44,889 bases of DNA. Origin: an uncultured Syntrophaceae bacterium (GTDB lineage Bacteria > Desulfobacterota > Syntrophia > Syntrophales > UBA2192). Shown here piece after piece: positions 3,689 through 20,918 of the stretch. The stretch covers positions 1-44,889 of the forward strand of contig CAYZKT010000003.1 of assembly GCA_964478885.1 (NCBI GenBank), read 5' to 3'. A program made the position numbers and the translations under genes. Below the pieces are notes generated by a model, which made no database searches, was not told the origin of the DNA, and was given only the letters and a program-made list of their open reading frames with translations. The first letter of the stretch is position 1. Every line of letters starts with the position of its first letter.

Positions 3689-3706
3689 CAGGCGAGACGC
3701 CTGTCC
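3686..3706. repeat. REP-like palindrome, copy 2 (inverted relative to copy 1)
   Basis: TGACAGGCGAGACGCCTGTCC. It begins at the rayT stop codon and ends 9 nt before the mobA ATG. Its loop AGA is the complement of copy 1's loop TCT. Confidence 0.75.
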
Positions 3707-3714
3707 TACAGTAT

Positions 3715-5824: not shown

Positions 5825-5859
5825 AGAGCGCCGGTTATCCAGGCCGGCGCTCTTTTTTT
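5825..5859 (+). terminator. intrinsic terminator between convergent genes
   Basis: Perfect 10-bp stem AGAGCGCCGG / CCGGCGCTCT with a 9-nt loop, followed by T7. It sits exactly between the MFS stop and the stop of the minus-strand operon. Confidence 0.75.
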
Positions 5860-7018
5860 ACCTTCGGGCAATCGCCCGGAGGATCGGCCCGCCATGGCGG
5901 CCGGCCATGTGCAGCGGTCTGAAGAGGTAATAGAGGGGGGAGAGCGGATCGGGCAGGGCCGAGGGGTTCCACTCGCCGGCGGCCAGCGTCGCCAGGAGCC
6001 TGCCGGCAAAGAGAAGCTGATCCCGCCTGCGATCCTTCGACTTCAGGTAGAAGAGGTACCGTGCCGGGTCCACGTCCGGGTCCACGGGGGTCTTCGCGAT
6101 GACATCCCGGGCCCGCCGCGCCAGGACCCTAACCATGAGGTCCGCCTCGATCCGGTCCGCGATCTCCTTCGGCAGGCAGGCACCCGTCAGGCGCTCGGCC
6201 AGGAGAAGCCCGAGCAGCAGGAGCCTCGTCACGCCGCAGCGCCCGGCAAGGTCGAGCGCCCGCAAAAGATCCGGGGGCGTCGGCGACGCGAGCAGGCCCG
6301 CCACGTCGCAGACCCAGCCCAGCTTGCACCACAGGTGCTTCGAGCCGTGCACGCAGAGCATCACGAGAGTTTCTTCCAGCGGGAGAACCGGATAATCCAT
6401 TCCGGCCCACGCTCGCCTCTCCAGCCTGGACCAGATACCGACCTTCCCGTGGTCGAACCCGAAATACCCGGGCACGACGGCCCATTGAAGCTCGACCTGC
6501 AGCTTCCCGTCGCGGCGTACGAAGGCCGTCTCGTATTCGGTTCGCCGGTGGGCCGCAAGTCGAGGCCCGACAAGCTCGGTTTGTGCCCTGTACCCCTGCA
6601 CATCGAGGACTTTCACGGCCCTGTGCAGCGTTTCCCCGGGGATGAGGATGTCCAGGTCCTTCGACTGCCGATATGCCGGATCACCATACAGCATGACGGA
6701 AAGGGCCGGCCCCTTGAAGGGGTATGCGGGGATGCCGGAAGACTCGAAGGCTTTCAGGATACGGGACAGTTCCGTGGCGAGCAGGAGCGACCGGACCGTG
6801 TTATTCTGATGAAGGCCGCGGAGGCGGTTTGCCGCGGCGCGGGGAACGGCTACGTTGAGAACGCCCGGAAGCGTCCTGCAAACAAGCGGGACCACGTTGT
6901 GCCACTCACAGAGGCCGGGGAAACGGTTCCAGTCGACACACTCCGGCACCGGCACCGTTTCACCCTTTCGGAAGGCGCCCCGGACACAGGTAAGCAGCAA
7001 TTCAGTTTCCGGGCGCAT
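5858..7018 (-). CDS. nucleotidyltransferase family protein (NTP_transf_5-like, the type seen in RiPP/lasso clusters)
   Basis: 386 aa starting MRPETELLLTCVRG...DWNRF..LCEWH.VVPLV, with a central SKDLDILI motif. It is the last gene of the operon and overlaps the upstream GT2 gene by 17 nt. Confidence 0.65.
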   Translation of the reverse strand: MRPETELLLTCVRGAFRKGETVPVPECVDWNRFPGLCEWHNVVPLVCRTLPGVLNVAVPRAAANRLRGLHQNNTVRSLLLATELSRILKAFESSGIPAYPFKGPALSVMLYGDPAYRQSKDLDILIPGETLHRAVKVLDVQGYRAQTELVGPRLAAHRRTEYETAFVRRDGKLQVELQWAVVPGYFGFDHGKVGIWSRLERRAWAGMDYPVLPLEETLVMLCVHGSKHLWCKLGWVCDVAGLLASPTPPDLLRALDLAGRCGVTRLLLLGLLLAERLTGACLPKEIADRIEADLMVRVLARRARDVIAKTPVDPDVDPARYLFYLKSKDRRRDQLLFAGRLLATLAAGEWNPSALPDPLSPLYYLFRPLHMAGRHGGPILRAIARR

Positions 7019-8024
7019 AGGGGAACACCTCCGTCGCCGGATCCCGTCCTGCGACAGCCGTAACGGATCGTACCGACCCGTTCAGAAGGGGCTGGAGCTT
7101 CCGGGCGTAGAGCCGTGGGATGACATGCGCCGGGTGCATCACGGACGCAGCAAGCAACGCCACGATCATCCCGAGCGGGCGCTGTTCGGCATAGTGCAGG
7201 GCCGCCCGCTGGTAGAGGCGTTCGCCCGCCTCCCGTCGGAATACTCGAGCCCGCTCGACGACAGGGAGTCCCTTCTCTCTCTCGACGAAGTCGCCGAGTG
7301 TCGGTTCCGGTAGTCCGTGTACCCTTGCCTCGCCGCAGGCGATTGCCCACCGGTGCAGCATCCTCTGCCGGGCATTCTGCGTCATCGTGAGCGACTCCCC
7401 GTGCAACCGGTAGAGAAGCAGGGGCTCGGAAACCTTGAGCATCAGGTGCCCTTTCTCCACCATGCGGATCCACAGGTCCACATCTTCGGCCGGCGAGAAG
7501 GCCTCCCGGTAGCCCTCCATGGCAAGGACGGTCTGACGATGCATCAGGGTGGAGGAATTGACGAAGTAGATGGGGCGGTTTTCCCGGACAAGCCGGTCAT
7601 ACTCGGCAGGCGTAAACGGGCCTTCCGTTCCCACGAGACCCAGGGGCTTTCCCGCGTGGTTGATGAAACAGGCGAGCGTTCCGACGATCTTCGTCTCCGG
7701 GTTTCGGCGCAGGAAGGCGATTTGCCGCTCGATTTTCTCCGGGAGGAAAACGTCGTCGGCGTCGAGGCGCGCCGCCCAATCGCAGCGGGCTTCCTCGAGG
7801 CCCCGGTTCCCCGCGGCGGCCACACCGCGGTTCTCCTGGCACAGGCAGCGGACGCGGGGGTCCCCGTCTGCGTAACGTCGGATGATCGAGGCCGTCGCAT
7901 CCGTGGAGCCGTCATCGACGAGCAGCAGCTCCAGGTCCCTGTGCGTCTGCGCCAGAACGCTTTCGACGGCCTGAGCCAAATATTTCTCCCCGTTATGAAC
8001 GGGTATGACGACGGACACTTTCAT
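7002..8024 (-). CDS. family 2 glycosyltransferase
   Basis: 340 aa with MKVSVVIPVHNGEKYLAQAVESVLAQTHRDLELLLVDDGSTD and a later LDADD motif, a classic GT2 (GT-A) signature. Confidence 0.85.
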   Translation of the reverse strand: MKVSVVIPVHNGEKYLAQAVESVLAQTHRDLELLLVDDGSTDATASIIRRYADGDPRVRCLCQENRGVAAAGNRGLEEARCDWAARLDADDVFLPEKIERQIAFLRRNPETKIVGTLACFINHAGKPLGLVGTEGPFTPAEYDRLVRENRPIYFVNSSTLMHRQTVLAMEGYREAFSPAEDVDLWIRMVEKGHLMLKVSEPLLLYRLHGESLTMTQNARQRMLHRWAIACGEARVHGLPEPTLGDFVEREKGLPVVERARVFRREAGERLYQRAALHYAEQRPLGMIVALLAASVMHPAHVIPRLYARKLQPLLNGSVRSVTAVAGRDPATEVFPYAPGN

Positions 8025-9906
8025 AGGGGATGATCTTGCCTTTTTTCCCGTCGGGGATCAGCTGGCACTCGGCGAGTTTCCGATAGGTGTCGTTCGTTCG
8101 CAGAAGCTCCGCGTGCGTGCCCTCGGCGACGAGGCGGTTTTCGTTCAACACCAGGATGCGGTCGCAGTCGGCAAACGTCGACAACCGGTGAGCGACGACA
8201 AAGAGCGTCTTGCCGCGGGTCTCGCGGGGGAGCGCCCGGAAGATCGACTTCTCCGTCAGGCCGTCGAGGGCCGCCGAGGGCTCGTCGAGGATGAGGATGT
8301 CAGGGTCCTTCACAAGCGCCCTGGCTATGGCAAGCCGCTGCTTCTGCCCTTCGGATAGATTCACGCCCATCTCGCCCACCTCGCTTCCGTATCCACCGGG
8401 AAGGGTCATGATGAAATCGTGGATGCCTGCAACGCTCGCGGCGCGGATGACCTCTGTCTCAGCGGCGCCGGGGTTGCCATAAAGAAGGTTTTCCAGGACC
8501 GTCCCGGAAAGGAGAATGGGGGCTTGCGCAACGTAGCCGATCCGTTTCCGCAGCGACCGGACGTCGTACTCCGATGCGGGCTTGCCGTCGTAGAAAATCT
8601 GGCCTCCCGTCGGATTGTAGAACCGCAGCAGGAGGCTCAGGAGCGTCGTCTTGCCCACGCCGCTCGGCCCCACGACGGCGATGTGTTCGCCCGGGCTGAC
8701 GCGGAAGGATACCTCGCTGAGCACGGGGTTTTTCGGGTCGTATTCGAAGGAGACGTTTTTGAACTCGACACCTCCTTCGAGCGCTTCGACCCTTTCACCC
8801 TTCTCCTCATGTTCTTCCGGCATCACATCCAGCAGGGCCGTGAGGCGTTCGAGCGATGCCCGGATATTCTGCATCTGCAGCCCCGTCGAGGTGAGTGACT
8901 GGGCCGGGCCGAAGACGCGGCCCAGGTAGGCCTGGAAGGCAAAGAGGGACCCCAGGCTCCAATGCCCCGTGATGACCCAGTAGGCGCCGATTGCGAAAAC
9001 GCAGAAGTTGACGAGGCTCGGCGTCGACGAAAGGGCAAGCCCCGTCACGGCGCCCACGACGGAGCGCTCCGCCGAGACCCGGAAGACCTGCCGCATGCCG
9101 TTCAGGATGCCCGCGACGGACTTCTTCTCGGCGGCGAAGGCCTTGACCAGCGGCATGGCGCTGAGTGTTTCCTGGAAGCCGCTCCTGTAGCGGGCATTCT
9201 CCTCGTTGCCCGCATGGTTCAGGGCATGCATCCGGTCGGAAAAAAACCGCAGGACAATCAGAAAAACCGGCACGGCGACGAGGGCCGCCAGCGCAAGCCT
9301 CCACTCGAGCCAGAACAGGAGGCAAAGCCCGCCGATGAAATACAGGATGTTCGTCAGGATGCCGACGAGGTTTCCCGACAGAAACCAGGTCACGCCTCCG
9401 ATGTCGCCTGTGATGCGCGCCATGAGATAGCCCGTCTGGTTCCGGTCGAAGAAGGACTTGGGAAGGCTGAAGGAGTGCTCCAGAACCGTCCTCTGGATGT
9501 CGAGGGTGACGTCCTGGCTGTAGCGCAGGAAGAACCAGCTCTGGAAAAGACCCATCCCGCGCGAGAAGAGGGCAAGGCCCACCATGACAAGGAGCACCCA
9601 GGGAAGAAGCGAAAGCTGTTTGCCCAGGATGACGTCATCGATGACAAACCGTGAGACAAGCGGCATGGGGAAGGCCATCAGGGCGTTAAGAAAGATAAAG
9701 CCTGCGCCCAGGGCCCCCTTCTTCCAGTGCCGCCGGAAAAACGGCAGGTGCCGGCGCAGGTTCGCTCCGATCCCGGCATAGGACTTCCCCCCCGCAATCC
9801 GGTCCTCCGGCGCCTTCCGCGCAAGCCCGCTTTTTAGATATTCAATCCAGGATTTCATGGCCAGAAAAAGGGGACCGTCCCCATGGATCCAAGATGCCAG
9901 TTTCAT
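7993..9906 (-). CDS. ABC exporter, fused permease/ATP-binding protein (MsbA-like type I exporter)
   Basis: 637 aa with an N-terminal 6-TM domain. It has Walker A GPSGVGKTT, signature LSEGQKQR and Walker B ILILDEP. No C39 peptidase domain is evident. An alternative start is M17 at 9858. Confidence 0.85.
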   Translation of the reverse strand: MKLASWIHGDGPLFLAMKSWIEYLKSGLARKAPEDRIAGGKSYAGIGANLRRHLPFFRRHWKKGALGAGFIFLNALMAFPMPLVSRFVIDDVILGKQLSLLPWVLLVMVGLALFSRGMGLFQSWFFLRYSQDVTLDIQRTVLEHSFSLPKSFFDRNQTGYLMARITGDIGGVTWFLSGNLVGILTNILYFIGGLCLLFWLEWRLALAALVAVPVFLIVLRFFSDRMHALNHAGNEENARYRSGFQETLSAMPLVKAFAAEKKSVAGILNGMRQVFRVSAERSVVGAVTGLALSSTPSLVNFCVFAIGAYWVITGHWSLGSLFAFQAYLGRVFGPAQSLTSTGLQMQNIRASLERLTALLDVMPEEHEEKGERVEALEGGVEFKNVSFEYDPKNPVLSEVSFRVSPGEHIAVVGPSGVGKTTLLSLLLRFYNPTGGQIFYDGKPASEYDVRSLRKRIGYVAQAPILLSGTVLENLLYGNPGAAETEVIRAASVAGIHDFIMTLPGGYGSEVGEMGVNLSEGQKQRLAIARALVKDPDILILDEPSAALDGLTEKSIFRALPRETRGKTLFVVAHRLSTFADCDRILVLNENRLVAEGTHAELLRTNDTYRKLAECQLIPDGKKGKIIPYESVRRHTRS

Positions 9907-9950
9907 GCCCGATGCGAAAGGGGCCTGTCCCCTTTTTCATCATCATGTCA

Positions 9951-10538
9951 TCAAGGCAGGGTTCGCTCATCCACGAAGATCCGAAAGGGCCGCCGGATCG
10001 TCCAGAAGCTGAAGCCTGAGGGGCGCCGCCCGATTATGCGCCTTCCCAGGACAAGCTGCATCTCCCTTGCCCCGTCGCGCTCGAAGGCGATGACTCTCGG
10101 ACGCAGGGGGGGAGGAAGAAGCGCCCGGAAAATCCCGCAACGGGCAAGGCCCCGGTAGCAGGGGGTCAGGATGTAGGACGCCAGATGATCCGCCCTTCGG
10201 GCGGCGCGGATGCAGGCGGCAAGCTGGCGCCCCGCGAGGCCGCCTGCAACGGGCATCAGCTTCCCCCTGCGCTCTACCTCCACGGCGCGGCCGACGAGAT
10301 CCGCCTGCCAGACGATCCAGCTATCCGCGTGCGGGTTCGCGTCCCCCCTCGTCCGGATCCCGTCAGGCCCGGCGGAGATGACACGGTGTACGACGCGCTC
10401 CGTCTGCCACGAAAGGACGAAGATGATCACATCCCCCGGCCTTACTTCTTCGGCACGGCAGGGGATGAAGCGGATCCGGTCCCCCGGCCGGAAAAGGGGC
10501 CGCATGCTGTCGCCGCGGCAGAAGAGTTCACCTTCCAT
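9951..10538 (-). CDS. S24/S26-type serine peptidase-like protein (candidate leader peptidase)
   Basis: 195 aa. The N-terminus MEGELFCRGDSMRPLFRPGDRI carries the GDSM.P nucleophile motif of LexA/signal-peptidase-fold enzymes, followed by VVHRVI. The C-terminal ~90 aa have no family I recognise. The start overlaps the upstream gene by 11 nt. Confidence 0.55.
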   Translation of the reverse strand: MEGELFCRGDSMRPLFRPGDRIRFIPCRAEEVRPGDVIIFVLSWQTERVVHRVISAGPDGIRTRGDANPHADSWIVWQADLVGRAVEVERRGKLMPVAGGLAGRQLAACIRAARRADHLASYILTPCYRGLARCGIFRALLPPPLRPRVIAFERDGAREMQLVLGRRIIGRRPSGFSFWTIRRPFRIFVDERTLP

Positions 10539-11460
10539 GCGCCGTCAACTCCCGTCGACCTCGGATTAGGCCTCTATCCGCTTTTTCCAGAGCAACCTCG
10601 ATCGTCTCCCAGAAGCGCCCCGTGAGGCTCAGACGGAGGATATGGGACGGAACGGAGGCTGCCAATCCGGCGGCATTGGCGAAGATCTCGCCCTTCAGGG
10701 GTAAGGTTTCGAAAGCACGGGACGTCGTCCGCACCGAGTTGAAGATCGTCTCGGCCGCATGGGCGAGGATGACCGTCGCCGCGGCACGGCCCGCAGGCAC
10801 CGCTTCGTCAACGCCGGCCTGGGCAAGGAAAAAGACCGCAGACAGATCGACGCCGCGGTTGATATCCCACGCGTCGCCATCGGATCCGACGCCAACGCGG
10901 CTCCACGTCGGCAGGGGATGTACAGCGAATCCCCCTTCCCGCTTTCGCACGGCCAGTGCGAGATCATCGCCGAGGACCGTCCATTTCCGCGGCAGCCGCA
11001 GGCAGGCCGTGGACTTCCCGACGCCGCTTCTGCCGACGAGCAGCACCCCCCGGCCGTCACGCTCCACGAGTGCGGCGTGGAGCGGAAGACCGCCCCGGCG
11101 CACCGTCGATTCGTACAGGGGCATCAGGGCATGCCTCATCTGCTCCCTGACCCGGCTGGAATTATCGGTCCGGTGAAGCCTGCAGACACTCTCGCGAAGC
11201 GTTTCATGGCGCCAGACTTCGAGATGTGGGAATATACCGACTCGCCAACCGCCCCCGAAGCAGCCGCGCGGCGGCAGCGCACGGCCGCCGTTCCCCGCAG
11301 CCCCACCATGCGGAAATGTCTCGAAGCGGATCATGCAGTCCGGATCGGCCTGCGACGGTGCGAGCGAGAGCAACCGTGCAAACCCGTCGGCCCACTCCAG
11401 GGCCTCTTTGGCGGGGCGTATACCCCAGGATTGACCGTCGGAAAGGCTAAACGAGTACAT
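10528..11460 (-). CDS. HPr-kinase-like P-loop protein, paralogue 1 (ScmC / HprK-related type)
   Basis: It has LLVGRSGVGKSTACLRLPRKWTVLGDDLA, matching the HprK C-terminal P-loop plus DD motif. The start is taken at MYSFSLSDG (ATG 11458-11460), which overlaps the peptide stop as TGATG and gives 310 aa. The track ORF extends to 11478. Confidence 0.7.
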   Translation of the reverse strand: MYSFSLSDGQSWGIRPAKEALEWADGFARLLSLAPSQADPDCMIRFETFPHGGAAGNGGRALPPRGCFGGGWRVGIFPHLEVWRHETLRESVCRLHRTDNSSRVREQMRHALMPLYESTVRRGGLPLHAALVERDGRGVLLVGRSGVGKSTACLRLPRKWTVLGDDLALAVRKREGGFAVHPLPTWSRVGVGSDGDAWDINRGVDLSAVFFLAQAGVDEAVPAGRAAATVILAHAAETIFNSVRTTSRAFETLPLKGEIFANAAGLAASVPSHILRLSLTGRFWETIEVALEKADRGLIRGRRELTAHGR

Positions 11461-11870
11461 CACGCCCCCGCGTTGCAATTTTCCAGATCACCGTAGCCGT
11501 AGACATTCGATCCCCCGTCACAGCAATAATTCCCCGCCCACTCCCCGCTCCAGCACATTCCCGACGTGATGTTTCCATCGCTGCACTGCTCGTAGGCCTG
11601 ACCGCCGGGAACGCAATTGCACCCGCCAACCCATGGGACACCTCCCGTGGACGAGTAATCGGCCCCGGTTTCGCAGCAGGAGTCGCAGCCGCAGGCGGAG
11701 AGTCCGGATCCGCACCATTCCGCCCCGGTGCCCGTCCCGCAACGCGTGGTTTCCTTGCAGCTTCCCAACGCCTGATACGTTCCGTTTCTGCACGAGATGA
11801 ACTCCCCGCACACCTGGGGTCCCTTCATGTCGACGAGAAGAGGGGGTTCGTAGCGAAATCTTGTTTTCAT
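11460..11870 (-). CDS. Cys/Gly-rich precursor-like peptide 1 (136 aa, 16 Cys)
   Basis: MKTRFRYEPPLLVDMKG... leader is shared with the two paralogues. The ATG forms an ATGA overlap with the stop of the upstream kinase-like gene (11867-11870). It fills the gap between same-strand genes. Confidence 0.7.
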   Translation of the reverse strand: MKTRFRYEPPLLVDMKGPQVCGEFISCRNGTYQALGSCKETTRCGTGTGAEWCGSGLSACGCDSCCETGADYSSTGGVPWVGGCNCVPGGQAYEQCSDGNITSGMCWSGEWAGNYCCDGGSNVYGYGDLENCNAGA

Positions 11871-12799
11871 TGAAATCCTGTTCTTCTCTTATCAAGGAGC
11901 CAGTCCCCTTCTTCCAGCGCTTCCTCGATCCTCTCCCAGAACAGGCCCGTGAGACTCAGGCGAAGGCGGTACGCGGGGATCGCCAAGGCTGCCGCCGCCG
12001 CGTTGTGGTAGAGGGCCTTTTTCACGCTTGCATCTTCCCCGTTCGGGAACCCGAAATCGATCGACCGGAACACCTCGAGCGCCGACCCGGCCATGGAAAT
12101 TGCCGCAGCGCTCTTTTTCAGATGCCGGCATTCGTCCCCGGGCGATTGCGCCAGGAAAAACACGGCGACAAGGGGAACCGACGCCTCCGACCGGCACCTT
12201 CCCGACTCGAAGCCTTTCCGAATGGTACTCCACGTCGGGAGCGGATGGGCCCGGTAGTTTCCATACCCGTCGCGCACCACCAGGCAGAGATCGTCACCCA
12301 GCACCCGCCAGGAATGCGGAAGCCTGCGACAGGCGGTGGATTTTCCCTCGCCGCTCCGGCCCGCCAGGATCACGCCCGATCCGCCGATCTCGATCAGGGC
12401 CCCGTGAAGGGGCAAACCCCCGCGCCTCAGGGTCTCCAGATAAACGGGCATCAGCGCGCGGCGCATCTGGCGGCTGCGTCCAGGCTCGTCCACATCGGGA
12501 ATCACTTTGCAGAGGACCTCCCGGATCTCCGGGTGCTCGAAGAGCGCCTGGTCCGGGTACTCGCGTATTCTCCAGTCCCCGGCTGTCGGGGCCTTTGCGT
12601 AACGGCACAGTACAGGCTCGAAGAACTCGCCGGGCTTGCGTGACATGAGCTCGACATGGACATGCCGACTTGCCCGGCCTTGGCCCGGCAGCAGGCCCAT
12701 GGCCGACGCAAATTCCGCCAGCCAGCCTTCGGTTGGCCCATCAGCCTCGAAGGCCCAGACGGCATCATGAGTGAAAGGCATATGAAACCTCAAAGGCAT
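11867..12799 (-). CDS. HPr-kinase-like P-loop protein, paralogue 2
   Basis: It has ILAGRSGEGKSTACRRLPHSWRVLGDDLC. The track ORF runs to a GTG at 12922, but the first 41 codons are rich in A/T-ending codons, unlike the rest. The ATG at 12799 (MPLRFHMPF...) gives 310 aa, the same length as paralogue 1. Confidence 0.65.
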   Translation of the reverse strand: MPLRFHMPFTHDAVWAFEADGPTEGWLAEFASAMGLLPGQGRASRHVHVELMSRKPGEFFEPVLCRYAKAPTAGDWRIREYPDQALFEHPEIREVLCKVIPDVDEPGRSRQMRRALMPVYLETLRRGGLPLHGALIEIGGSGVILAGRSGEGKSTACRRLPHSWRVLGDDLCLVVRDGYGNYRAHPLPTWSTIRKGFESGRCRSEASVPLVAVFFLAQSPGDECRHLKKSAAAISMAGSALEVFRSIDFGFPNGEDASVKKALYHNAAAAALAIPAYRLRLSLTGLFWERIEEALEEGDWLLDKRRTGFQ

Positions 12800-12912
12800 G
12801 ATTTTTTCATCCCCCGACACGGCCTTTGCGACCTTCTCCCCAAAGCGGCCTCCCGGTCTGTGTCCACTGTAAGAAGGAAAAGGCATCCGGCCGGCAATAC
12901 TGACAGCGAATA

Positions 12913-13263
12913 TCAAAAACACTGAGTTCCTCCGGTTTCACACAGATACGAGGCGCGAGTGCCGGCCTCGCAACGGTATCCGGCCGAAGACCCGCCACTG
13001 CACCAGCACATGACCTGGATGCCTCCCTCGACGACGTCGCCGCTGTAGCAACAGGAGTAGGTGCACCCCGAGGGGTGGCAGGCGTTGGTGCCGTTCGTGC
13101 AGCCGTTTGCCTCGGTGCCATTTCCACAGGCGGCACTGACAACGCAGCTTCCCTCCGTGCAGTTCTCCACGTTGTATCCACCGTTGCACGAGGTATACCC
13201 AAGGGCGGAATGGTCGCGCATGTCGACCAGGACCGGTTTTTCATATCGCACATGCTTGTTCAT
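12913..13263 (-). CDS. Cys/Gly-rich precursor-like peptide 2 (116 aa, 14 Cys)
   Basis: MNKHVRYEKPVLVDMRDHSALGYTSC... has the shared leader and the shared SCC / CxC pattern. AGGA lies about 9 nt upstream of the ATG. Confidence 0.7.
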   Translation of the reverse strand: MNKHVRYEKPVLVDMRDHSALGYTSCNGGYNVENCTEGSCVVSAACGNGTEANGCTNGTNACHPSGCTYSCCYSGDVVEGGIQVMCWCSGGSSAGYRCEAGTRASYLCETGGTQCF

Positions 13264-13376
13264 TTCGATGATCCTGCCGTGTGGGTTCTCTAGTTCTTTG
13301 CCACCCTTTCAGCACACGGGTCCAGCCATGAGGGGCTACAGATTCCGGATCAGCAAGCACAACCTGGCAACGCCGT

Positions 13377-14321
13377 TTAAACCCATCCGCATGCTCTCTC
13401 CTCGTGCCGTCTCCCTTCATGCCGGCCGGGAAACCCATCGCCGCCCAATACCGCCTCGATCTTTTCCCAGAACCGGCCCGTGAGGCTCACGCGGAGCAGG
13501 TAGGCAGGCACGGCCAGCGAGAAGTCGGCGGCATTCTCGAAGACCTGCGTCCCGATATCCGGTTCCTTTCCCACCAGCTTGAACGGCCCCACGGACCAGA
13601 AGACCTCCATGGCCGAGCGGCGGCAGGCCACGGCGGCTTCGCCCTTACCCACCGGCACCGCCACATCTTCGTTTGACTGCTCGAGGAAGAAGATCGCCTC
13701 CAAGGGCACCGCTCGAATGACGTCCCACGAACCCTGCTGTCCGGCGCGAAGGGCGCTCCAGGTCGGAAAAGCGTGCGCACAGTACTTCCCTGTTGCATCG
13801 CGGACCACGAGGGCCAGATCATCGGCAAGGCCCCTCCACGGGGACTGGAGACGCCTGACGCATGTCGACTTGCCGATGCCGCCGCGGCCGGCCAGGAGAA
13901 TCCCTCTGCCGTCTCGCTCCACGAATGCGGCGTGGACGGGAAAGCCGCCCTTCCCGAGGATCTTCAGGTAAAGGGGCAGAAGAGCATGGCGCATGTCTTC
14001 GATTTCTTTCCCTTCGCTTCCCTTCGGTGGCAGTAGGCACACGATGTCCAGCCCTGCCGGTTCGTTTTCGATCACGGCGCCCGGAATCCGGCGGAAATCC
14101 CACAGCGGCCCTTCCCGGGTCGGGATACCCGACACCCCGGGAGTCCTCTTCATGCGGGCCGAGCGATGGAACGTGACGGTCTCTGCGGGGCAGTTGCAGG
14201 AAATGGGAGGAAGGCCCAGGATGAATGCATACTGAGAAAGCCATTCTTCCGTCCCAGTCGTCGATCGCAGAAACCATCGTGTACCGTCGACAAGTCGAAG
14301 TTCGTACATCCCTTTATCCAT
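13377..14321 (-). CDS. HPr-kinase-like P-loop protein, paralogue 3
   Basis: It has LLAGRGGIGKSTCVRRLQSPWRGLADDLA. The C-terminal motif RVSLTGRFWEKIEAVL is shared with paralogues 1 and 2. An alternative start at M5 (14309, MYELRLVDG) would also give 310 aa. Confidence 0.7.
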   Translation of the reverse strand: MDKGMYELRLVDGTRWFLRSTTGTEEWLSQYAFILGLPPISCNCPAETVTFHRSARMKRTPGVSGIPTREGPLWDFRRIPGAVIENEPAGLDIVCLLPPKGSEGKEIEDMRHALLPLYLKILGKGGFPVHAAFVERDGRGILLAGRGGIGKSTCVRRLQSPWRGLADDLALVVRDATGKYCAHAFPTWSALRAGQQGSWDVIRAVPLEAIFFLEQSNEDVAVPVGKGEAAVACRRSAMEVFWSVGPFKLVGKEPDIGTQVFENAADFSLAVPAYLLRVSLTGRFWEKIEAVLGGDGFPGRHEGRRHEERACGWV

Positions 14322-14351
14322 TCAAATCCATCGAAGTGCCACATGCGCACG

Positions 14352-14741
14352 TCACGCACAAGCGCCGTTGCAGTCCTCCAGGGCCATCGATCCATCGATG
14401 CAGACAGCCGACACCCGGCCGCCCGTGTAGCAGATATACGCTGCATTCGCCCCCGAAATGCACTGGCAACCAGACACGGTACCCCTCCCGCTCCCGTAAA
14501 ACCCCACCATCTGTCCATCCGCGCAGCACGTGTAGCAGTTTGAACTGGTTGAGCAGGCCCCGATTCCGTTTTCACAACCCCCCGTATATTGGCCATCCTG
14601 GCAGAAGCTGGTCGGAATGCAGGAACCGAGGGAGCACTCGAAATTGCACGAGCCGCCGTCGCAGGTACCCGAGTAGCCCAAGGCGCTGCCCGTGTTCATG
14701 TCGAAGAGAAGCGGGGGTTCGTACCTGAATCGTCCGGTCAT
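14352..14741 (-). CDS. Cys/Gly-rich precursor-like peptide 3 (129 aa, 16 Cys)
   Basis: MTGRFRYEPPLLFDMNTGSALGYSGTC... is the first of the three peptide genes and lies 59 nt downstream of the second rSAM/SPASM gene. Confidence 0.7.
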   Translation of the reverse strand: MTGRFRYEPPLLFDMNTGSALGYSGTCDGGSCNFECSLGSCIPTSFCQDGQYTGGCENGIGACSTSSNCYTCCADGQMVGFYGSGRGTVSGCQCISGANAAYICYTGGRVSAVCIDGSMALEDCNGACA

Positions 14742-14800
14742 GTCCTGTCATCCTACTCGGTCTGCCGTGAACGCACCTGTTATGCCGTTTTCGATCTTTC

Positions 14801-15997
14801 TCATCCTCGCGCCGCAGAGGCCCCAACCGGAGGTGCCTGATCAGCTTGCTGGCGGGCACCCTGCAGCCTCGTCCCCGGGAAGAGCCCCTCACGCCTGGCC
14901 TCCTCGCAGAACCAATAGGGCGCCCAGAGGCTGCGGCTGCGGTAGTAGTTCTGGGCAACGCAGCTCCCCAAACAGATCCCTTTCATGAGGCAGTCCCCGC
15001 AGATCCCTTCCAGCTTCCCGGGCATCCCTTCACGGATTTCACGCAGGACGGGGTTGTCTTTCCACACCCCGGAAAGGTCATCCTTCGCTGCATGGCCGAA
15101 GACCAGCTCGGGGACAGACTCGCCGATCCCGCAGAGGGCGTAGGACCCGTCGGCCAGGACACCCAGGATGCCGATAATTCCGCAGACGCCGCAGCCCGAC
15201 CCATCGCGGCCGTACATTCGGCCCAGAGACCGGAAGGCGGCGGGGTGGGAATAGAAGAGTCGAAGCTTCGTCGCACGGGAAAGTCTGCCCTCGACGTCCT
15301 CGCCCAGCTCAACCAGTTCCCTGACGGAAAGTGTCTCGCCGGCCTGGTGCATCTTCACGCCCCGCGCCGTGGGCTGGACGATGTTGAACTTGACCGACGA
15401 GGCACCCTCGCTTTCGGCAAGGCGCACGAGCGCCTCGATCTGGCCCACGTTCCGGCGCATCAGGGTCATGATCACCTGGGGCCGTATGCCCGCCGCGACG
15501 AGGTTCCGGATCCCCTGCAACGCGGCCTCGAAGCAGCCGTGGACGCCCCGGACCCACTCGTGCGTCTCTGCGTCGGCCCCGTCGAGGCTCACGGAAATGT
15601 GATAGATCCCGGAGCGGGCGAGGTCCCTTGCCAGTTCAGGCGTGCAGAGAACCCCGTTGGTCTCCGTGCTGAACCGGATCTTTTCGTCCCGGAGGATCGC
15701 GAGGATGTCCCCGATACGGGGATGCATGAGCGGCTCGCCGCCCGTGAGCTTCACGGACGAGAGGCCGAGAGGTCCTGCCTGTTGCAGGATGCGCCGAAAC
15801 AGGTCCGGATCGATGGCCCGGTACTGTCGCTTTGCCGTCTGGTGGGGCGGCTCGATCCAGCAGTGCCGGCACCGCAGGTTGCATCCCTCGGTAAGATAGA
15901 AATAGAGCGTACTGAGAGGTGGAACAGCACCGCCTGCAGCCTTGGCCGAAGCGTCGCCCTTGAAGACGGACCATGTCTTTCCGGAACTGACCATCAT
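14801..15997 (-). CDS. radical SAM/SPASM domain protein (PqqE-like peptide maturase)
   Basis: 398 aa. It has the CNLRCRHC CxxxCxxC cluster, GGEPLMH, and a C-terminal Cys-rich SPASM region (CGVCG...LCG...CGDCLMKGICLGSC). The start forms an ATGA overlap with the upstream gene. Confidence 0.85.
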   Translation of the reverse strand: MMVSSGKTWSVFKGDASAKAAGGAVPPLSTLYFYLTEGCNLRCRHCWIEPPHQTAKRQYRAIDPDLFRRILQQAGPLGLSSVKLTGGEPLMHPRIGDILAILRDEKIRFSTETNGVLCTPELARDLARSGIYHISVSLDGADAETHEWVRGVHGCFEAALQGIRNLVAAGIRPQVIMTLMRRNVGQIEALVRLAESEGASSVKFNIVQPTARGVKMHQAGETLSVRELVELGEDVEGRLSRATKLRLFYSHPAAFRSLGRMYGRDGSGCGVCGIIGILGVLADGSYALCGIGESVPELVFGHAAKDDLSGVWKDNPVLREIREGMPGKLEGICGDCLMKGICLGSCVAQNYYRSRSLWAPYWFCEEARREGLFPGTRLQGARQQADQAPPVGASAARG

Positions 15998-17676
15998 AAC
16001 CCTCCCCGACCGGCCGCCCTCGGGCGAGATGCCCGCGGTTCGAGCCTGACCAGATAAACGTTCTTTTGCTTGCAGGATTTGCGGCAGCAGGACTTCGCAC
16101 GCGGTGGTGGCATAAAGGCAGGCGGTGACTGCCCGTCATAGGGATTGCCTCCCCCGATGCTCAACGGATTGGTCGTCCACACGTAGATCCCGTCGATGCC
16201 CCGTTCGCGAAGACGCCTGATCAGCCTCTCTCGTTCCCCGGGGTTCCCGGAAACGAGGAAAACCCGGTCGAAGAAGAGAGGGCCCGCATGCTCCATGCTC
16301 CCGGCCTCACTGAACAGGATCACATCCCCCGCCGAGGTGTGCTGTTTGAGAAACTCGATTCGCCGGGCATTGTAGTCCTTGTACATCCAGAGATCGGTGC
16401 GCGCGTCCTGAAAGCTGTTCAACAGGGCCACGCCGCCGAAGAAAAGGAGCACCACGTACATCCCTCGGGAGTCGAAGATCCGCCGGTGATCCGCTCCCAG
16501 CAGAAGGACCACGAAGGGGACGAGCGGCAGCCAGACGGCAAGGACGCGGCTGACGACGGGCCTATGGATCACGGCGCCGCAGAGAACGCCGAGGATCACC
16601 GTGCAGACCAGGATCGGCTCGAGAGTCTCTTCCCGCCTCATCAAGCGGTCCATCCGTCCCGGGAAGCCGTAGAAACCGAACAGGACGGCAGGAAAGAACG
16701 CCATGAGATGGGACACGGTGATCCGTGCGGCCGAGAGCAGAACGGCGGCAAACATCAGCAGGACGGGCAGGACGGTCATGACGGCCCGCCCGACCGGGGT
16801 AACGTCACTGCCTCGCGACGCCGCAAGAAGGACGAGGGACAGGACCATGCTTCCGGCAAACAGGGCGAAGCGGATCCCCGAGAGCCCGTAGAAGGGCAGC
16901 ATCAACTTCAGGTAGGACCCGGGAAACCCTCCGTGAAAAATCGCATCGTGCAGCACGATAGTGGCAAGCGCCAGCGCGGCCCCCGCCGCATAAGCGGCCA
17001 ATTCCCTCCATCGCTTCTGCAGGGCGAGAACGGTTCCCGCAGAAAGGAGATAGGAGAAGGCCGCGAACAGGAAGTCCAGGCTGGCAAGGACGGAGACCCC
17101 GGCCAGGAAGGACGACCCGGCAAGATCGGCCCGGCCCTCGGTTCCCGCCTTGAAGTAACGGACGAGCAGGAAGAGCCCCATGACGATCAACAGGAGGGCA
17201 AGGGATTGCCCGGTGAATCTGAACGCGAGGAGAAGGACGGGTGAGCCGCCCAGGAAGAGTGCAAGGAGGAGATAATGAAGAACGCCCCGCGGCATCATCC
17301 GGTCCAGGGTCACGCCGAGGGACAGCGCGGCGAGAAATACGAACAGGACCGGCGTGAAATCGACGCTCCGCTCGCCGAATACGGGGTGGAACAAGCTCGC
17401 GACGAAGGGAAACAGCGGGGGGGGGACGGCGTAGAGCCTGTCGCCGCGGGACTCGAAGAGGTCCCGCGGTCCCGCGAGATCTTTCGGCTCGAAGCCGAAG
17501 CGGAAAGCCGGCGCATCGATCGCAAGTGCCCCGTTCAGGGAGAAGTTCTTCATCTGGACGTAATGGACGCCCTCGAGGTTGGTTTGCAGGCCGGGGGGCG
17601 CGAGGAAAAAGCACAGGCCCGCAAGCGCCGCGAGGACGGCAACAAGGAAGATCGTTTCCCCGGGGTTTCTCGTCAT
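15994..17676 (-). CDS. polytopic integral membrane protein with C-terminal soluble domain (possibly GT-C/ArnT-like)
   Basis: 560 aa from the ATG at 17674-17676 (MTRNPGETIFLVAVLAALAGL...). The longer track ORF to 17826 would overlap the upstream rSAM gene by 134 nt. It has at least 10 hydrophobic segments. The first-loop motif EGVHYVQMKNFSLNG resembles the first periplasmic loop of GT-C enzymes. The fold assignment is tentative. Confidence 0.5.
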   Translation of the reverse strand: MTRNPGETIFLVAVLAALAGLCFFLAPPGLQTNLEGVHYVQMKNFSLNGALAIDAPAFRFGFEPKDLAGPRDLFESRGDRLYAVPPPLFPFVASLFHPVFGERSVDFTPVLFVFLAALSLGVTLDRMMPRGVLHYLLLALFLGGSPVLLLAFRFTGQSLALLLIVMGLFLLVRYFKAGTEGRADLAGSSFLAGVSVLASLDFLFAAFSYLLSAGTVLALQKRWRELAAYAAGAALALATIVLHDAIFHGGFPGSYLKLMLPFYGLSGIRFALFAGSMVLSLVLLAASRGSDVTPVGRAVMTVLPVLLMFAAVLLSAARITVSHLMAFFPAVLFGFYGFPGRMDRLMRREETLEPILVCTVILGVLCGAVIHRPVVSRVLAVWLPLVPFVVLLLGADHRRIFDSRGMYVVLLFFGGVALLNSFQDARTDLWMYKDYNARRIEFLKQHTSAGDVILFSEAGSMEHAGPLFFDRVFLVSGNPGERERLIRRLRERGIDGIYVWTTNPLSIGGGNPYDGQSPPAFMPPPRAKSCCRKSCKQKNVYLVRLEPRASRPRAAGRGGL

Positions 17677-17692
17677 TCCATTCCTCTTCGGC

Positions 17693-18805
17693 TCAACCCA
17701 GCAGGGCCCGGTCCGGAAGCCTGCCCCCCTCGGCGAGGAACTTCCGCAGGCAGGCGTCGGGGCTCGGGTGGTTGACCTCGCCCGTAAGCGTGTAGGAGAG
17801 CCCCGGGCAGTTGCCGGTACAGGCATTCACGTAAGGGCACCCCTCGCAGAAGGAAAAGTTCGTCAGGGGGATCTCCTGCCTTCGCCTGAGGGTGCTGAGC
17901 GCTTCGTGGTCTCTCCATACCATCCCGAGGTCGTCGCGGTTGATGCGGCCGAGTTCGATGTGGGACAGCATCGTGCAGGGTGTGATGACGCCGTCGGCCC
18001 GCACGGCGAGGCCCGACCGGTAACAGCCGCACCCCGTCAGATAGCCCCGTTTCGGGGCCGTCAGCTCTTTTTTCCCGAGCCGGGCTTCCTCCATGTCGAG
18101 CCAGCCCCGCGCCTCGGCCAGCGGCCCCGCCATGGCCTGGATCCGGCCGTTGTATTTCCTAGTCAGGCGAAGGAGCGTCTCCATGGCTATCATCCGCTCA
18201 TCCGTGGTGAGCTGCACCATTTCGGCGTTTTTCCTGCACAGGCCCATGGCCCCTGCGGAATTGGTCCCGAAGGAGGGAAGGCCGATGTCTTCCAGCAGGA
18301 ACCGGGCGACGGCGTCGAGGTCGTGGACGTTCTTGCGGTGGATCGTGACGCGCACCGCCGCGTGAATGCCATGCCGACGAAGGGTCATGAGACCCTCGAT
18401 CGCCTTCGCGAAGCTCCCCCTGCCCCGCATGGCGTCGTGGCTTGAGGGCATGGAGCCGTCGATGGAGACCTGGACGTAGTTGCAACGTTTTGTCGAGACG
18501 AGAAAAGCCGCCATGTCGTCGTCGATCAGCGTCCCGTTGCTGAGGACGGCAAAGCGCATCCGGTTGCGGACGATGCCGTCGACGATCTCCTTCAGGTCCT
18601 CCCGGATGAAGGGCTCGCCCCCCGCCAGCGTCACCTCCGTGACGGCGCAACGGTTCAGTTCCTCGAAAAAGCGCAGCCACTCTTCGGCCGGCAGATCTTT
18701 ACCCGCATCGCCGGGGCTCTCGAAATGATAGCAGTATCGGCACCGCAGGTTGCAGCGGTTCGTGATATCGATGTCGACCTTCTTCGGAGTCCGCATGAGT
18801 TTCAT
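17693..18805 (-). CDS. radical SAM/SPASM domain protein (PqqE-like peptide maturase)
   Basis: 370 aa. It has the CNLRCRYC cluster, GGEPFIRED, and SPASM cysteines (GCGC...PC...CEGCPYVNACTGNCPG). Confidence 0.85.
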   Translation of the reverse strand: MKLMRTPKKVDIDITNRCNLRCRYCYHFESPGDAGKDLPAEEWLRFFEELNRCAVTEVTLAGGEPFIREDLKEIVDGIVRNRMRFAVLSNGTLIDDDMAAFLVSTKRCNYVQVSIDGSMPSSHDAMRGRGSFAKAIEGLMTLRRHGIHAAVRVTIHRKNVHDLDAVARFLLEDIGLPSFGTNSAGAMGLCRKNAEMVQLTTDERMIAMETLLRLTRKYNGRIQAMAGPLAEARGWLDMEEARLGKKELTAPKRGYLTGCGCYRSGLAVRADGVITPCTMLSHIELGRINRDDLGMVWRDHEALSTLRRRQEIPLTNFSFCEGCPYVNACTGNCPGLSYTLTGEVNHPSPDACLRKFLAEGGRLPDRALLG

Positions 18806-18809
18806 TCGT

Positions 18810-19121
18810 TCAGCCTCGATCCCGAGTATCCACTCCTCGTCCCTGATCTAATTCATATCCCACCAGCCCCTGCGCCTCCAGCGCCGCGATGAACTGGCGG
18901 GCGTGCGCGCCGGCGTCCTCGGGCACGTCGTCGGCCTCCTCGCGGAGCCTTCCGACGATGGAATCCGCATCGTGTTTCCCGTCGAGGAGCTTCCAGATGA
19001 AAACCCCCGTGGGGTTGAGTCCGAAGGCGTTTCCCGTGTCGGGGTCGAAGAGGATCGCCCAGTCGTCGAATTCCTCGCGAAGGACGATCAGGGGGTTGGC
19101 AATGGGATTTTTGACATCCAC
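18810..19121 (-). CDS. PqqD family peptide chaperone (RRE-type)
   Basis: I start it at GTG 19119-19121 (VDVKNPIANPLIVLREEFDDWAILFDPDTGNAFGLNPTGVFIWKLLDG...), preceded by AAGGAA at 7-nt spacing, giving 103 aa. The W.L.DG and I...L motifs are typical of PqqD-like RiPP recognition elements. The track ORF upstream of this start has non-coding-like composition. Confidence 0.7.
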   Translation of the reverse strand: MDVKNPIANPLIVLREEFDDWAILFDPDTGNAFGLNPTGVFIWKLLDGKHDADSIVGRLREEADDVPEDAGAHARQFIAALEAQGLVGYELDQGRGVDTRDRG

Positions 19122-19359: not shown

Positions 19360-20646
19360 GTGGAGAAATTCGACGTCATCGTCGTGGGGGCAGGACTGGC
19401 CGGGCTGGCGGCGGCATGGACGCTGGCCGGCGAGGGCGTCGAGGTCGTCGTCCTCGACCGGGGCGACTACCCCGGCTCCAAGAATGTCTCCGGCGGCCGC
19501 CTCTACCTGAACCCCGTCCGCGACCTCTTCCCCGGCCTCTGGGACGAGGCCCCCCTGGAGCGGGCCATCGTTCGCGAGGGGGCCACCCTCATGGCCCGCA
19601 ACCGCTCCTTCACCTTCCACTACACCGGCAGCGAGCTGCGAATCGACAAGCCCCAGAGCTACAGCATCCTCCGCTCGAAATTCGACCGCTGGTTCTCCGA
19701 GCGGGTCGAGGAGCGCGGCGGGATGATCCTCGTCAAGACTCTCGTGACGGACCTCCTCCGCGAAAAAGGCAGGGTCTGCGGCGTCGTCGCCGGGGGGGAC
19801 GAGCTGCGGGCCGACGCGGTCATCGCCTGCGACGGGGTCCTGTCTCTCATCCCGGAGAAAGCCGGCCTGCGCGCCCCGGGGCGCCCGCACGACTATGCCG
19901 TCGGCATCAAGGAAGTGATCCGCCTCGAGCGCCCCGTGATCAACGACCGCTTCGGCGTGGCGGACGGCGAGGGGACGGCGCACCTCTACGCGGGAGACAT
20001 CACGAAGGGCCTCTTCGGCGGCGGCTTTCTCTACACCAACGGGGAGAGCCTGAGCCTGGGGTTGGTCCTCTCCATCGAGGACATGGCGAGGGAGGAAGCG
20101 GCGGGCGATGCGCCCGCGCTCTTCGAGGCCTTCAAGGCACGGCCCGAGATCGAGCCCCTCATCCGGGGAGGGCAGACGGTGGAATACGGCGCCCACGTAA
20201 TTCCCGAGGGCGGTTACCGGTCACTTTCCCGCCTCTGCGGCGACGGGATTCTCGTGGCGGGAGATTCGGCAGGCTTCGCCCTGAACCTCGGCTTCACCGT
20301 CCGCGGCATGGAATACGCCCTGGCCACGGGGTACCACGCTGCGAAGGCCGTCATCGAGGCAAAGAAGGCGGGCAGGTACGATGCCGCGGCGCTGGCCGGC
20401 TACCAGAACTCGCTGGAGGAAAGCTTCGTTTTGCAGGATTTCAAGACCTTCAAGGATACCCCCCGCGTGCTGTCGAACCCGCACCTGTTCGGCCACTACC
20501 CGGAGCTCATCGGGAATCTCCTGCGCGATCTCTACACCGTCCCCGCAGGGCCCAAGTCGCCCGTCTTCACGACGCTGCGCAAGCACCTGACGCTCAGCGA
20601 GCTCTGGACCATGCTCCTGGACGCAAAGGAGGTCACGAAGATATGA
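19360..20646 (+). CDS. fixC: FAD-dependent oxidoreductase FixC (ETF-quinone oxidoreductase-like)
   Basis: 428 aa, GTG start. It has the FDVIVVGAGLAGLAAA dinucleotide fold, and fixX follows in an ATGA overlap. Confidence 0.8.
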   Translation: MEKFDVIVVGAGLAGLAAAWTLAGEGVEVVVLDRGDYPGSKNVSGGRLYLNPVRDLFPGLWDEAPLERAIVREGATLMARNRSFTFHYTGSELRIDKPQSYSILRSKFDRWFSERVEERGGMILVKTLVTDLLREKGRVCGVVAGGDELRADAVIACDGVLSLIPEKAGLRAPGRPHDYAVGIKEVIRLERPVINDRFGVADGEGTAHLYAGDITKGLFGGGFLYTNGESLSLGLVLSIEDMAREEAAGDAPALFEAFKARPEIEPLIRGGQTVEYGAHVIPEGGYRSLSRLCGDGILVAGDSAGFALNLGFTVRGMEYALATGYHAAKAVIEAKKAGRYDAAALAGYQNSLEESFVLQDFKTFKDTPRVLSNPHLFGHYPELIGNLLRDLYTVPAGPKSPVFTTLRKHLTLSELWTMLLDAKEVTKI

Positions 20647-20918
20647 GCGACCTCAAGGCAAAGCTGGGCCTCAACGTCTTCAAGCCACTCCCCGCCCCGC
20701 ACATCCGGATCCGACAGGGCATGGAGCGCGACCCGCGGCTGAAGGCGGCCGTGAGGGCCTGCCCTGCGGGACTTTACGCGGAAGGCGCCGACGGGGTGTT
20801 CACCCTGACCATCGACGGCTGCCTCGAGTGCGGGACCTGCCGCATCGCCTGCGGCACCGGGGTGCTCGAGTGGGGCTACCCGGAGGGCGGCGCGGGCGTA
20901 CAGTTCCGCTTCGGATAG
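20643..20918 (+). CDS. fixX: ferredoxin-like protein FixX
   Basis: 91 aa (MSDLKAKLGLNVF...CPAGLY...CLECGTCRIAC...). It is embedded in a longer off-frame track ORF. The ATG at 20643 overlaps the fixC stop. Confidence 0.75.
   Translation: MSDLKAKLGLNVFKPLPAPHIRIRQGMERDPRLKAAVRACPAGLYAEGADGVFTLTIDGCLECGTCRIACGTGVLEWGYPEGGAGVQFRFG

Follow-up and report, generated by a model that had tools for sequence, protein, structure and literature searches.

Long-form ScmA-like precursor candidates, each paired with its own kinase-like ScmC, in a SynChlorMet cassette of an uncultured Syntrophaceae bacterium

Among the gene clusters for peptides that ribosomes make and that are modified after translation (RiPPs), one that has stayed an orphan is the SynChlorMet (Scm) cassette, which is annotated in hundreds of anaerobe genomes, those of syntrophs, sulfate reducers, anammox bacteria and methanogens among them. 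NCBIfam holds a 49-position precursor model for this cassette, TIGR04252 (SCM_precur_ScmA, "SynChlorMet cassette protein ScmA"), with a cut-off of 35 bits. Here we describe three paralogous open reading frames (ORFs), P1, P2 and P3, in a 44,889-nt stretch of DNA from an uncultured Syntrophaceae bacterium (contig CAYZKT010000003.1 of assembly GCA_964478885.1; hereafter the window). They are real conserved coding genes under purifying selection, and each lies directly upstream of its own copy of scmC. By profile comparison they are divergent long-form homologues of ScmA, a variant of a known precursor family. We think it likely that all three are translated precursors of the cassette and are matured by the steps proposed below.

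A close parallel has been dissected experimentally in Bacillota, where the linear polyphosphorylated peptides (LPPs; LppA, K, B, S, D and N) were described by Popov et al. (Nat Commun 2026, PMC13381572). Each LPP cluster encodes one to three precursors of 35-200 aa, whose leaders have a YxxPx[L/V] motif. The LPP kinase puts several phosphates on Ser3 of the core, and a RiPP recognition element (RRE) presents the cleavage site to the peptidase, which cleaves unphosphorylated precursor poorly (PMC13381572). The leader motif bound by such RREs is [Y/W]xxPx[L/V/I/F/A] (PMC13381572). In lasso systems, too, HprK homologues phosphorylate the precursor, and a nucleotidyltransferase adds a hexose to the phosphate (PMC8498205).

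P1, P2 and P3 align with 41% identity and 32 invariant columns. They share the block R-Y-E-x-P-x-L-x-D-M, with R6, Y7, E8, P10, L12, D14, M15 and G22 invariant in the leaders, which read RYEPPLLVDMKGPQVCGEF and similar. The first ~22 residues of each contain the [Y/W]xxPx[L/V/I/F/A] motif, and the R-Y-E-P-P-L-L-V leader fits it. Further along, a CC doublet (C72-C73) and a CxC (C92, C94) are unchanged across all three. The original prediction, made from this DNA without database searches, had named three paralogous ORFs with these shared blocks, and its positions, exact N-termini and Cys counts (16, 14 and 16 for P3, P2 and P1) are confirmed, as is its remark that a hydrophobic signal peptide is missing: on inspection of the three sequences no hydrophobic N-terminal signal segment was seen.

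Searching with a profile of the three peptides retrieved 22 clusters (90% identity) from 5.8 billion proteins, with E-values down to 3.5e-45; not one of the 22 contains a Pfam domain or has any annotation other than "hypothetical". A 23-member profile retrieved 55 representative clusters from 1.84 billion proteins. Both the similarity among P1-P3 and these matches are far beyond chance. Also among the profile matches were the long tandem-repeat proteins P0056, P0062, P0063 and P0073, which we set aside as unrelated, their similarity being an artefact of composition or periodicity. When P1-P3 themselves were scanned against NCBIfam and Pfam, nothing significant came up; the sole Pfam match, LDLRAD1_C (E 0.06), was taken as chance.

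The ratio of nonsynonymous to synonymous substitution rates (dN/dS) against orthologues in related metagenome-assembled genomes (MAGs) is 0.20-0.33, in leader and core alike. P3 is 81% identical to its orthologue in locus L006 (related loci carry L numbers throughout) with a dN/dS of 0.20, and P1 is 78% identical to its L012 orthologue with a dN/dS of 0.32. The core of P2 is 100% identical at the protein level to that of L012:6805-7152, with synonymous changes only (core dS 0.07). In this P2 orthologue the first six leader residues read VNERTK where P2 has MNKHVR, and its start codon may be mis-set. Each precursor ATG has an AGGA a few nucleotides 5' of it (8 nt for P2), and the G+C content at third codon positions is 0.72-0.74 (0.74 for P3), similar to that of the flanking genes. 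The P1 start overlaps the stop of ScmC-2 (ATGA) and the P1 stop overlaps the probable start of ScmC-1 (TGATG), an arrangement expected under translational coupling. The antisense ORFs of the same 62% G+C region are without comparable coding support. Conservation, dN/dS and ribosome-binding sites rule out spurious high-GC reading frames. A recent local triplication is likewise ruled out, with the paralogues 36-41% identical to one another and the orthologues 63-96%.

The relation of these ORFs to ScmA rests on position, leader, repeats and profile comparison. Like ScmA-type precursors, they stand directly upstream of ScmC and have a Y-E-K/P-P-x-L leader followed by C-x-x-G repeats. When the long-family profile was set against that of 20 short forms in hhalign, the two matched with 97.7% probability (E 1.7e-12) over the leader and the first repeats. 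Short relatives encoded upstream of ScmC reach only 15.8-28.6 bits against TIGR04252, and 11 of 56 peptides match it at E<=0.1. In a protein search with the short-form profile, the short forms too turned out to be labelled "hypothetical", with no source naming them ScmA. What sets the window apart from the described ScmA type is the size of its precursors (116-136 aa with 14-16 Cys versus ~60-77 aa with 3-7 Cys), the presence of three divergent precursor-ScmC modules rather than one, and, as in the long-form subtype at large, a polytopic membrane protein and a family-2 glycosyltransferase (GT2) that short-form loci lack. Four of the five models that define SynChlorMet find their match here, the precursor model being the exception. 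The long-form class is unmodelled and unannotated in current models. The original prediction had thus been right that the ORFs are unusually long, the common short form being only 60-77 aa in total, and right to suspect an Scm-like cassette (ScmC 208-234, ScmF 597, ScmE 601 and ScmD 126 bits, all above their cut-offs). Its phrase "missing substrate" is not supported, since a precursor model already exists, which the window ORFs escape.

We next looked at how precursor and ScmC are paired. Wherever a homologue occurs on the five metagenome contigs, the gene directly downstream of it is PF27840:ScmC, and in many cases the two overlap by 4 nt; the same contigs also hold radical SAM/SPASM, PqqD, S24-like peptidase, ABC and GT2 genes. 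We scanned 185,579 species genomes with an ScmC alignment and obtained 64 loci, from Syntrophales, other Desulfobacterota, Aminicenantes, Brocadiaceae, KSB1, Omnitrophota, WOR-3, Chlorobiaceae and Methanogenium. A long-family ORF ending <=350 nt upstream on the same strand accompanies 64 of 107 ScmC matches; for the majority of the remainder, a shorter ORF that shares the leader motif takes its place. When a uniform rule (leader motif plus Cys/Gly-rich tail) was applied to 69 related loci, such an ORF was found upstream of 64 of 80 intact ScmC genes versus 4 of 310 other cassette genes. The original prediction's expectation that homologues with the same leader would sit beside such enzymes, ScmC and radical SAM/SPASM genes included, is thus borne out in many phyla.

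Peptide and ScmC distances are correlated (Mantel r 0.69, reached by 0 of 2000 permutations), and all three window pairs recur as orthologous pairs in other genomes. Identity among the three ScmC copies of the window is 38%, versus 63-85% to orthologues elsewhere, indicating that the precursor-ScmC modules are old. Because each precursor keeps an ScmC of its own while ScmD, ScmE and ScmF serve all of them, the ScmC proteins look substrate-specific. The rule has exceptions, as orphan precursors occur in two Scm loci: same-leader ScmA-like ORFs at L021:4921-5119 and L021:10996-11257 (an Aminicenantes MAG) and at L025:11921-12272 (a Deltaproteobacteria MAG) are not directly upstream of ScmC. Truncated or frame-shifted ScmA-like and ScmC fragments also lie beside intact modules at L009:12099-12474, L034:6270-7840 and L033:1353-1520, and are apparently decaying precursor-ScmC modules.

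The core of the long forms is an array of ~10-residue C-x-x-G-x-x-A units, rich in Cys, Gly, Ser and Thr, on an 11-12-Cys framework. An alignment of 23 homologues shows 11-12 Cys and several Gly, spread over the whole core, with little or no variation. Position +3 from a core Cys is a Gly in 88% of the short-form and 59% of the long-form cases; at +6 there is a preference for Ala, and the commonest distance from Cys to Cys is 10. Each window peptide has 8-10 C-x-x-G units, and the long-form arrays are elaborated with the CC doublet and the CxC. Thus, of the original picture of a conserved leader with hypervariable cores, the leader stands and the hypervariability does not: the cores have diverged, yet a Cys/Gly framework runs through them. 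AlphaFold2, given the shallow 23-sequence alignment, returned no confident fold for P3, with a mean predicted local distance difference test score (pLDDT) of 38.6. The suggestion that the products are "mini-proteins" is therefore not supported, a folded domain being neither shown nor excluded by this model. N-glycosylation sequons were considered as a feature and dropped as inconsistent (0, 3 and 2 per peptide).

ScmC appears to be a kinase-like enzyme, judging from its motifs and fold. Profile comparison aligns it with HprK/P (1jb1, E 3.9e-5) over a stretch that takes in the His, the GxSGxGKS motif and the DD pair. Among 48 sequences H130, G150, K151, T153 and D167 do not vary and D168 hardly does, and the catalytic residues are kept in all three window copies. 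A confident AlphaFold2 model of ScmC-3 (pLDDT 85, predicted template-modelling score 0.84) was matched by Foldseek to the PEPCK fold. ScmC scores far below the HprK family cut-offs, and by these comparisons it is a distant relative of HprK, not an HprK. A candidate acceptor is the Ser/Thr just ahead of the first conserved Cys, present in about 20 of 23 long forms.

From gene content, motifs and folds we infer the following chemistry for the cassette. ScmD would bind the Y-E-x-P-x-L leader, as the recognition elements of lasso and LPP systems do, and present the precursor to ScmE and ScmF. In ScmE the CxxxCxxC spans residues 18-25, too close to the N-terminus for an RRE to precede it; ScmF likewise begins almost directly with CxxxCxxC and has no fused recognition domain, so that both must rely on the discrete ScmD. 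The two enzymes would then cross-link the peptide within itself at its repeated Cys units, the likeliest bond being a thioether. The cognate ScmC would phosphorylate a hydroxyl residue of its own precursor, with the Ser/Thr before the first conserved Cys as candidate. A soluble signal-peptidase-like enzyme would cut off the leader, the predicted site being after the invariant Gly22. This residue lies 15 residues after the motif Tyr, the same spacing as that of the LPP cleavage residue T-1, and its A/V-x-G context looks typical of signal-peptidase sites. An MsbA-like ABC pump would export the product, NTP_transf_5 may further decorate it, and in the long-form subtype GT2 and the polytopic membrane protein may do so too. 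This scheme predicts that ScmD binds the YExPxL leader, that the precursor is cut after Gly22, that a +80 Da shift depends on ScmC, and that each ScmE/ScmF cross-link changes the mass by −2 Da.

Set beside the LPP system, the window operon has all five of the SpI-like peptidase, discrete RRE, HprK-like kinase, NTP transferase and MsbA-like exporter, although the identity of LppN with PF14907 is not confirmable from the text of PMC13381572. Long precursors are common to both, as is a small conserved residue 15 positions after the Tyr, where LppA is cut. LPP clusters, however, lack radical SAM enzymes, which PMC13381572 nowhere mentions, whereas the Scm operon has two radical SAM/SPASM maturases. 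The LPP consensus YxxPxVLxHQxIxFETxxS is represented in the window by its YxxPx[L/V] part only, HQxIxFETxxS being absent, and LPP cores are not Cys-repeat arrays. LPPs are reported as Bacillota-restricted, whereas Scm loci occur in Syntrophales, other Desulfobacterota, Brocadiaceae, KSB1, Omnitrophota, Chlorobiaceae and methanogens, and in the window each precursor has its own kinase-like gene. The LPP class is defined by a linear product with Ser polyphosphorylation as the primary modification and no other class-defining enzyme, and the two radical SAM/SPASM maturases place the window outside it. On this comparison, the locus would work like the LPP family and is not a member of it.

With the phosphorylated lasso peptides paeninodin and pseudomycoidin, the cassette shares an HprK-like kinase, a nucleotidyltransferase and a PqqD-like RRE reading a YxxP leader (PMC8498205); it differs in having radical SAM enzymes instead of a lasso cyclase and B2 protease, and its precursors are without the conserved C-terminal Ser. 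Sactipeptides, ranthipeptides and SCIFF (six cysteines in forty-five residues) peptides resemble it in their periodic Cys-rich substrates, SPASM radical SAM maturases and RRE-dependent leader recognition. ScmE matches the PapB, StsB, AlbA and SkfB models sub-threshold, and ScmF too falls below these cut-offs. Unlike those classes, Scm has two maturases without fused RREs plus a discrete RRE, cores 2-5 times longer, a kinase-like enzyme per precursor and a leader peptidase of the signal-peptidase type. For sheer substrate size, QhpC, the gamma subunit of quinohemoprotein amine dehydrogenase, offers a parallel: it is an ~80-110 aa substrate with a leader that receives several Cys thioethers from a radical SAM/SPASM enzyme. 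QhpC acts with QhpD, QhpE and QhpF; once cross-linked, it is cleaved by a protease and transported by an ABC protein, and it becomes an enzyme subunit. Neither kinase-like or NTP-transferase genes nor a repeat architecture are known from the Qhp system.

Several observations weigh against P1-P3 being precursors matured as proposed. None of the three matches TIGR04252 even at E<=10, the literature searched held no paper on the Scm cassette and none on radical SAM enzymes combined with HprK, and the type of cross-link that a radical SAM enzyme makes is not readable from sequence. The window peptidase is without the N-terminal helix that LppS uses to contact the RRE. NCBIfam E-values between ScmC and HprK are only 1e-5 to 1e-7 and confined to the P-loop region. 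The proposed acceptor Ser/Thr, found in about 20 of 23 long forms, is not conserved in the short forms, and many long forms have at this position a Thr, which LppK did not accept (PMC13381572). Co-divergence of adjacent genes is expected from linkage alone and does not by itself prove physical specificity. Some of these points would suit an alternative that we consider unlikely, namely that ScmC leaves no phosphate and is either an ATP-dependent activator, acting by phosphorylation-elimination to give dehydro-residues open to lanthionine-like Cys attack, or a chaperone or recognition subunit that hands the cores to ScmE and ScmF. A recognition role fits the one-to-one pairing and co-divergence. 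For the alternative as a whole, it counts that the cores are rich in both Ser/Thr and Cys, that the similarity to HprK is limited to the nucleotide-binding core, that the overall fold match is PEPCK and not a protein kinase, and that the putative acceptor varies among short forms. The HprK/P catalytic His and DD pair, however, are invariant in ScmC (the second Asp nearly so), which extends the likeness beyond the P-loop, and an activator would have no conserved lyase or cyclase partner in these loci. The same gene set in LPP and paeninodin-type clusters leads to stable (poly)phosphoserine (PMC13381572, PMC8498205), and NTP_transf_5, which acts on the phosphate in pseudomycoidin (PMC8498205), is retained here.

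That the ORFs should encode small secreted or metal-binding Cys-rich proteins, metallothionein-like or disulfide-rich, with the true Scm substrate lying elsewhere or being no peptide at all, is very improbable, even though a conserved Cys framework over a ~100-aa core does resemble small disulfide or metal-binding domains and core dN/dS is as low as leader dN/dS. Instead of a signal peptide these proteins have an RRE-type YxxPxL leader. The cluster encodes a discrete RRE and no other candidate peptide, the three ORFs being the only peptide-profile matches within the window. Their position upstream of ScmC is specific and conserved across phyla by the counts given above, the long forms are homologous to 60-aa short peptides that cannot be folded domains, and AlphaFold2 finds no fold. 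We give still less credit to the idea that the peptides are not matured whole and serve as sacrificial scaffolds from which some small diffusible cofactor or metabolite is made, in the manner of PqqA for pyrroloquinoline quinone (PQQ) or MftA for mycofactocin; this strikes us as extremely improbable. Such scaffolds would have no need of 8-10 repeated Cys units on a conserved framework, since only a single residue pair is excised, and they would leave the conserved dedicated leader peptidase and bacteriocin/MsbA-type ABC exporter to be explained, along with several divergent precursor types per genome, each with its own ScmC. What speaks for them is that ScmD and ScmE are PqqD- and PqqE-like and that mycofactocin and PQQ maturases are among the weaker matches.

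Taking P1-P3 as long-form ScmA-family precursors, we put forward, as a reading somewhat less likely than not, that long-form Scm products would form a new hybrid RiPP class. Its members would be peptides of ~95-115 residues with many radical SAM/SPASM cross-links at C-x-x-G repeats, (poly)phosphorylated by a precursor-dedicated kinase, possibly glycosylated and exported, their precursor-kinase modules being shuffled among Syntrophales like bacteriocin or toxin cassettes. If the chemistry proposed for the cassette is confirmed, its product would be the first RiPP in which cross-linking by radical SAM enzymes and phosphorylation of the HprK type come together, and its substrates are unusually large. 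The original prediction had overlooked the one-precursor-one-ScmC pairing, the close parallel with LPPs (PMC13381572) and the kinase-like ScmC as a probable second chemistry. New here is the identification of a substrate for essentially every ScmC gene, including the long-form class missed by current models, and the finding that this substrate arrives as one-to-one precursor-ScmC modules, with the accessory genes connected to the experimentally dissected LPP system. An orphan but widely annotated cassette thereby becomes a testable system for the RiPP field.

Precursor lengths across the loci are bimodal, ~60-77 aa with 3-7 Cys versus ~115-138 aa with 11-17 Cys, and the two forms differ in their gene neighbourhoods. 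The polytopic membrane protein is found in 13 of 17 long-form loci versus 0 of 24 short-form loci (Fisher p 1.4e-7) and GT2 in 13 of 17 versus 1 of 24 (Fisher p 1.6e-6), although long- and short-form loci are phylogenetically clustered and these p-values overstate independence. This distribution of the two genes suggests that the long-form subtype alone has a further glycosylation step, which possibly takes place outside the cytoplasm. At least two precursor-ScmC modules are present in 11 of 17 long-form loci and in 0 of 24 short-form loci. Across related genomes (L012:6763-9984, L006:9569-11323, L004:4172-8711 and L009:8066-11359) long-form precursors fall into eight or more types that can be told apart, every type accompanied by an ScmC of its own, and the types occur in varying combinations. 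L012 has the P1 and P2 types as in the window with another type replacing P3, and L006 has the P3 type plus one type not in the window. These varying combinations look like module shuffling.

The genes of the cassette form a single minus-strand operon at 5858-19103, in the order ScmD, ScmE, membrane protein, ScmF, P3-ScmC, P2-ScmC, P1-ScmC and downstream genes (Table 1). Judged by the NCBIfam models, the locus is a complete SynChlorMet cassette, with ScmD, ScmE, ScmF and all three ScmC above their cut-offs.

Table 1. Genes of the Scm operon in the window, in order of transcription, with the matches that support each assignment.
Feature	Position	Strand	Support and remarks
ScmD, discrete PqqD-like RRE	18810-19103	minus	TIGR04248 126 bits, cut-off 100
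ScmE, radical SAM/SPASM enzyme	17693-18805	minus	TIGR04250 600.9 bits, cut-off 400
Polytopic membrane protein, ~560 aa	15994-17676	minus	ORF to 17826, probable start Met51; between ScmE and ScmF
ScmF, second radical SAM/SPASM enzyme	14801-15997	minus	TIGR04251 597.5 bits, cut-off 400
P3, long-form ScmA-like precursor	14352-14741	minus	129 aa, 16 Cys, 8 C-x-x-G units
ScmC-3, HprK-like P-loop protein, paired with P3	13377-14321	minus	TIGR04249 234.3 bits, cut-off 125
P2, long-form ScmA-like precursor	12913-13263	minus	116 aa, 14 Cys
ScmC-2, paired with P2	11867-12799	minus	TIGR04249 217.0 bits; ORF to 12922, probable start ATG 12799
P1, long-form ScmA-like precursor	11460-11870	minus	136 aa, 16 Cys
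ScmC-1, paired with P1	10528-11460	minus	TIGR04249 207.6 bits; ORF to 11478, probable start ATG 11460
Archaeal/ER-type signal-peptidase-I-like protein, probable leader peptidase	9951-10538	minus	195 aa; TIGR02228 52.6 bits, cut-off 51.85
MsbA-like ABC exporter without peptidase domain	7993-9906	minus	MsbA-type and bacteriocin-export ABC families, E 1e-114 and below
GT2	7002-8024	minus	Pfam Glycos_transf_2 3.2e-35
Nucleotidyltransferase NTP_transf_5, uncharacterised, last cluster gene	5858-7018	minus	Pfam PF14907 2.7e-53

ScmD also matches Pfam PqqD (2.7e-17) and, by sequence, the lasso RRE TbiB1 (PDB 5v1u, E 5.6e-4), and lasso-peptide PqqD chaperones are its next matches after TIGR04248. Its top PDB matches, designed "Cake" beta-propeller repeats, are summed weak repeats and were disregarded. 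For ScmC-2, the TIGR04249 alignment starts at residue 48 of the 351-aa ORF. The 195-aa peptidase aligns to SEC11C (7p2q) over the Ser/His/Asp boxes DSMRP (Ser11), VVHRVI (His51) and RGDANPHAD, and a homologue is present in 54 of the 69 related loci. Its start is only 10 residues ahead of the catalytic Ser, which leaves it no membrane anchor, and its C-terminal extension of ~110 aa has no family match. The ABC exporter is found in 43 of the 69 loci and NTP_transf_5 in 32. The membrane protein has ~10 hydrophobic segments and returned no match in Pfam or PDB sequence searches; the one hint at its family, a low-scoring NCBIfam hit (62 bits, cut-off 200) to the putative glycosyltransferases LA_3751/LA_3752, suggests that it is possibly a GT-C-like glycosyltransferase.

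Window nucleotide identity to loci of uncultured Syntrophaceae and Syntrophobacterales genomes is 81-91%, and Rfam and tRNA scans of the window gave no matches. The operon is flanked by a convergent MFS transporter gene (plus strand) beyond NTP_transf_5 and by a divergent ETF-QO gene at the ScmD side. Just outside the cluster, an IS200-like Y1 transposase ORF (3185-3688, plus strand; Pfam Y1_Tnp 2.2e-11) runs into the beginning of a gene for a MobA-like NTP-transferase (3652-4302, plus strand). On the other side, genes for an ETF-QO-like flavoprotein and a FixX-like ferredoxin (19360-20918, plus strand) lie divergently beside ScmD; the pair is syntenic with the cluster in 12 of the 69 loci, L006 and L019 included, and probably reflects lineage synteny outside the cassette.

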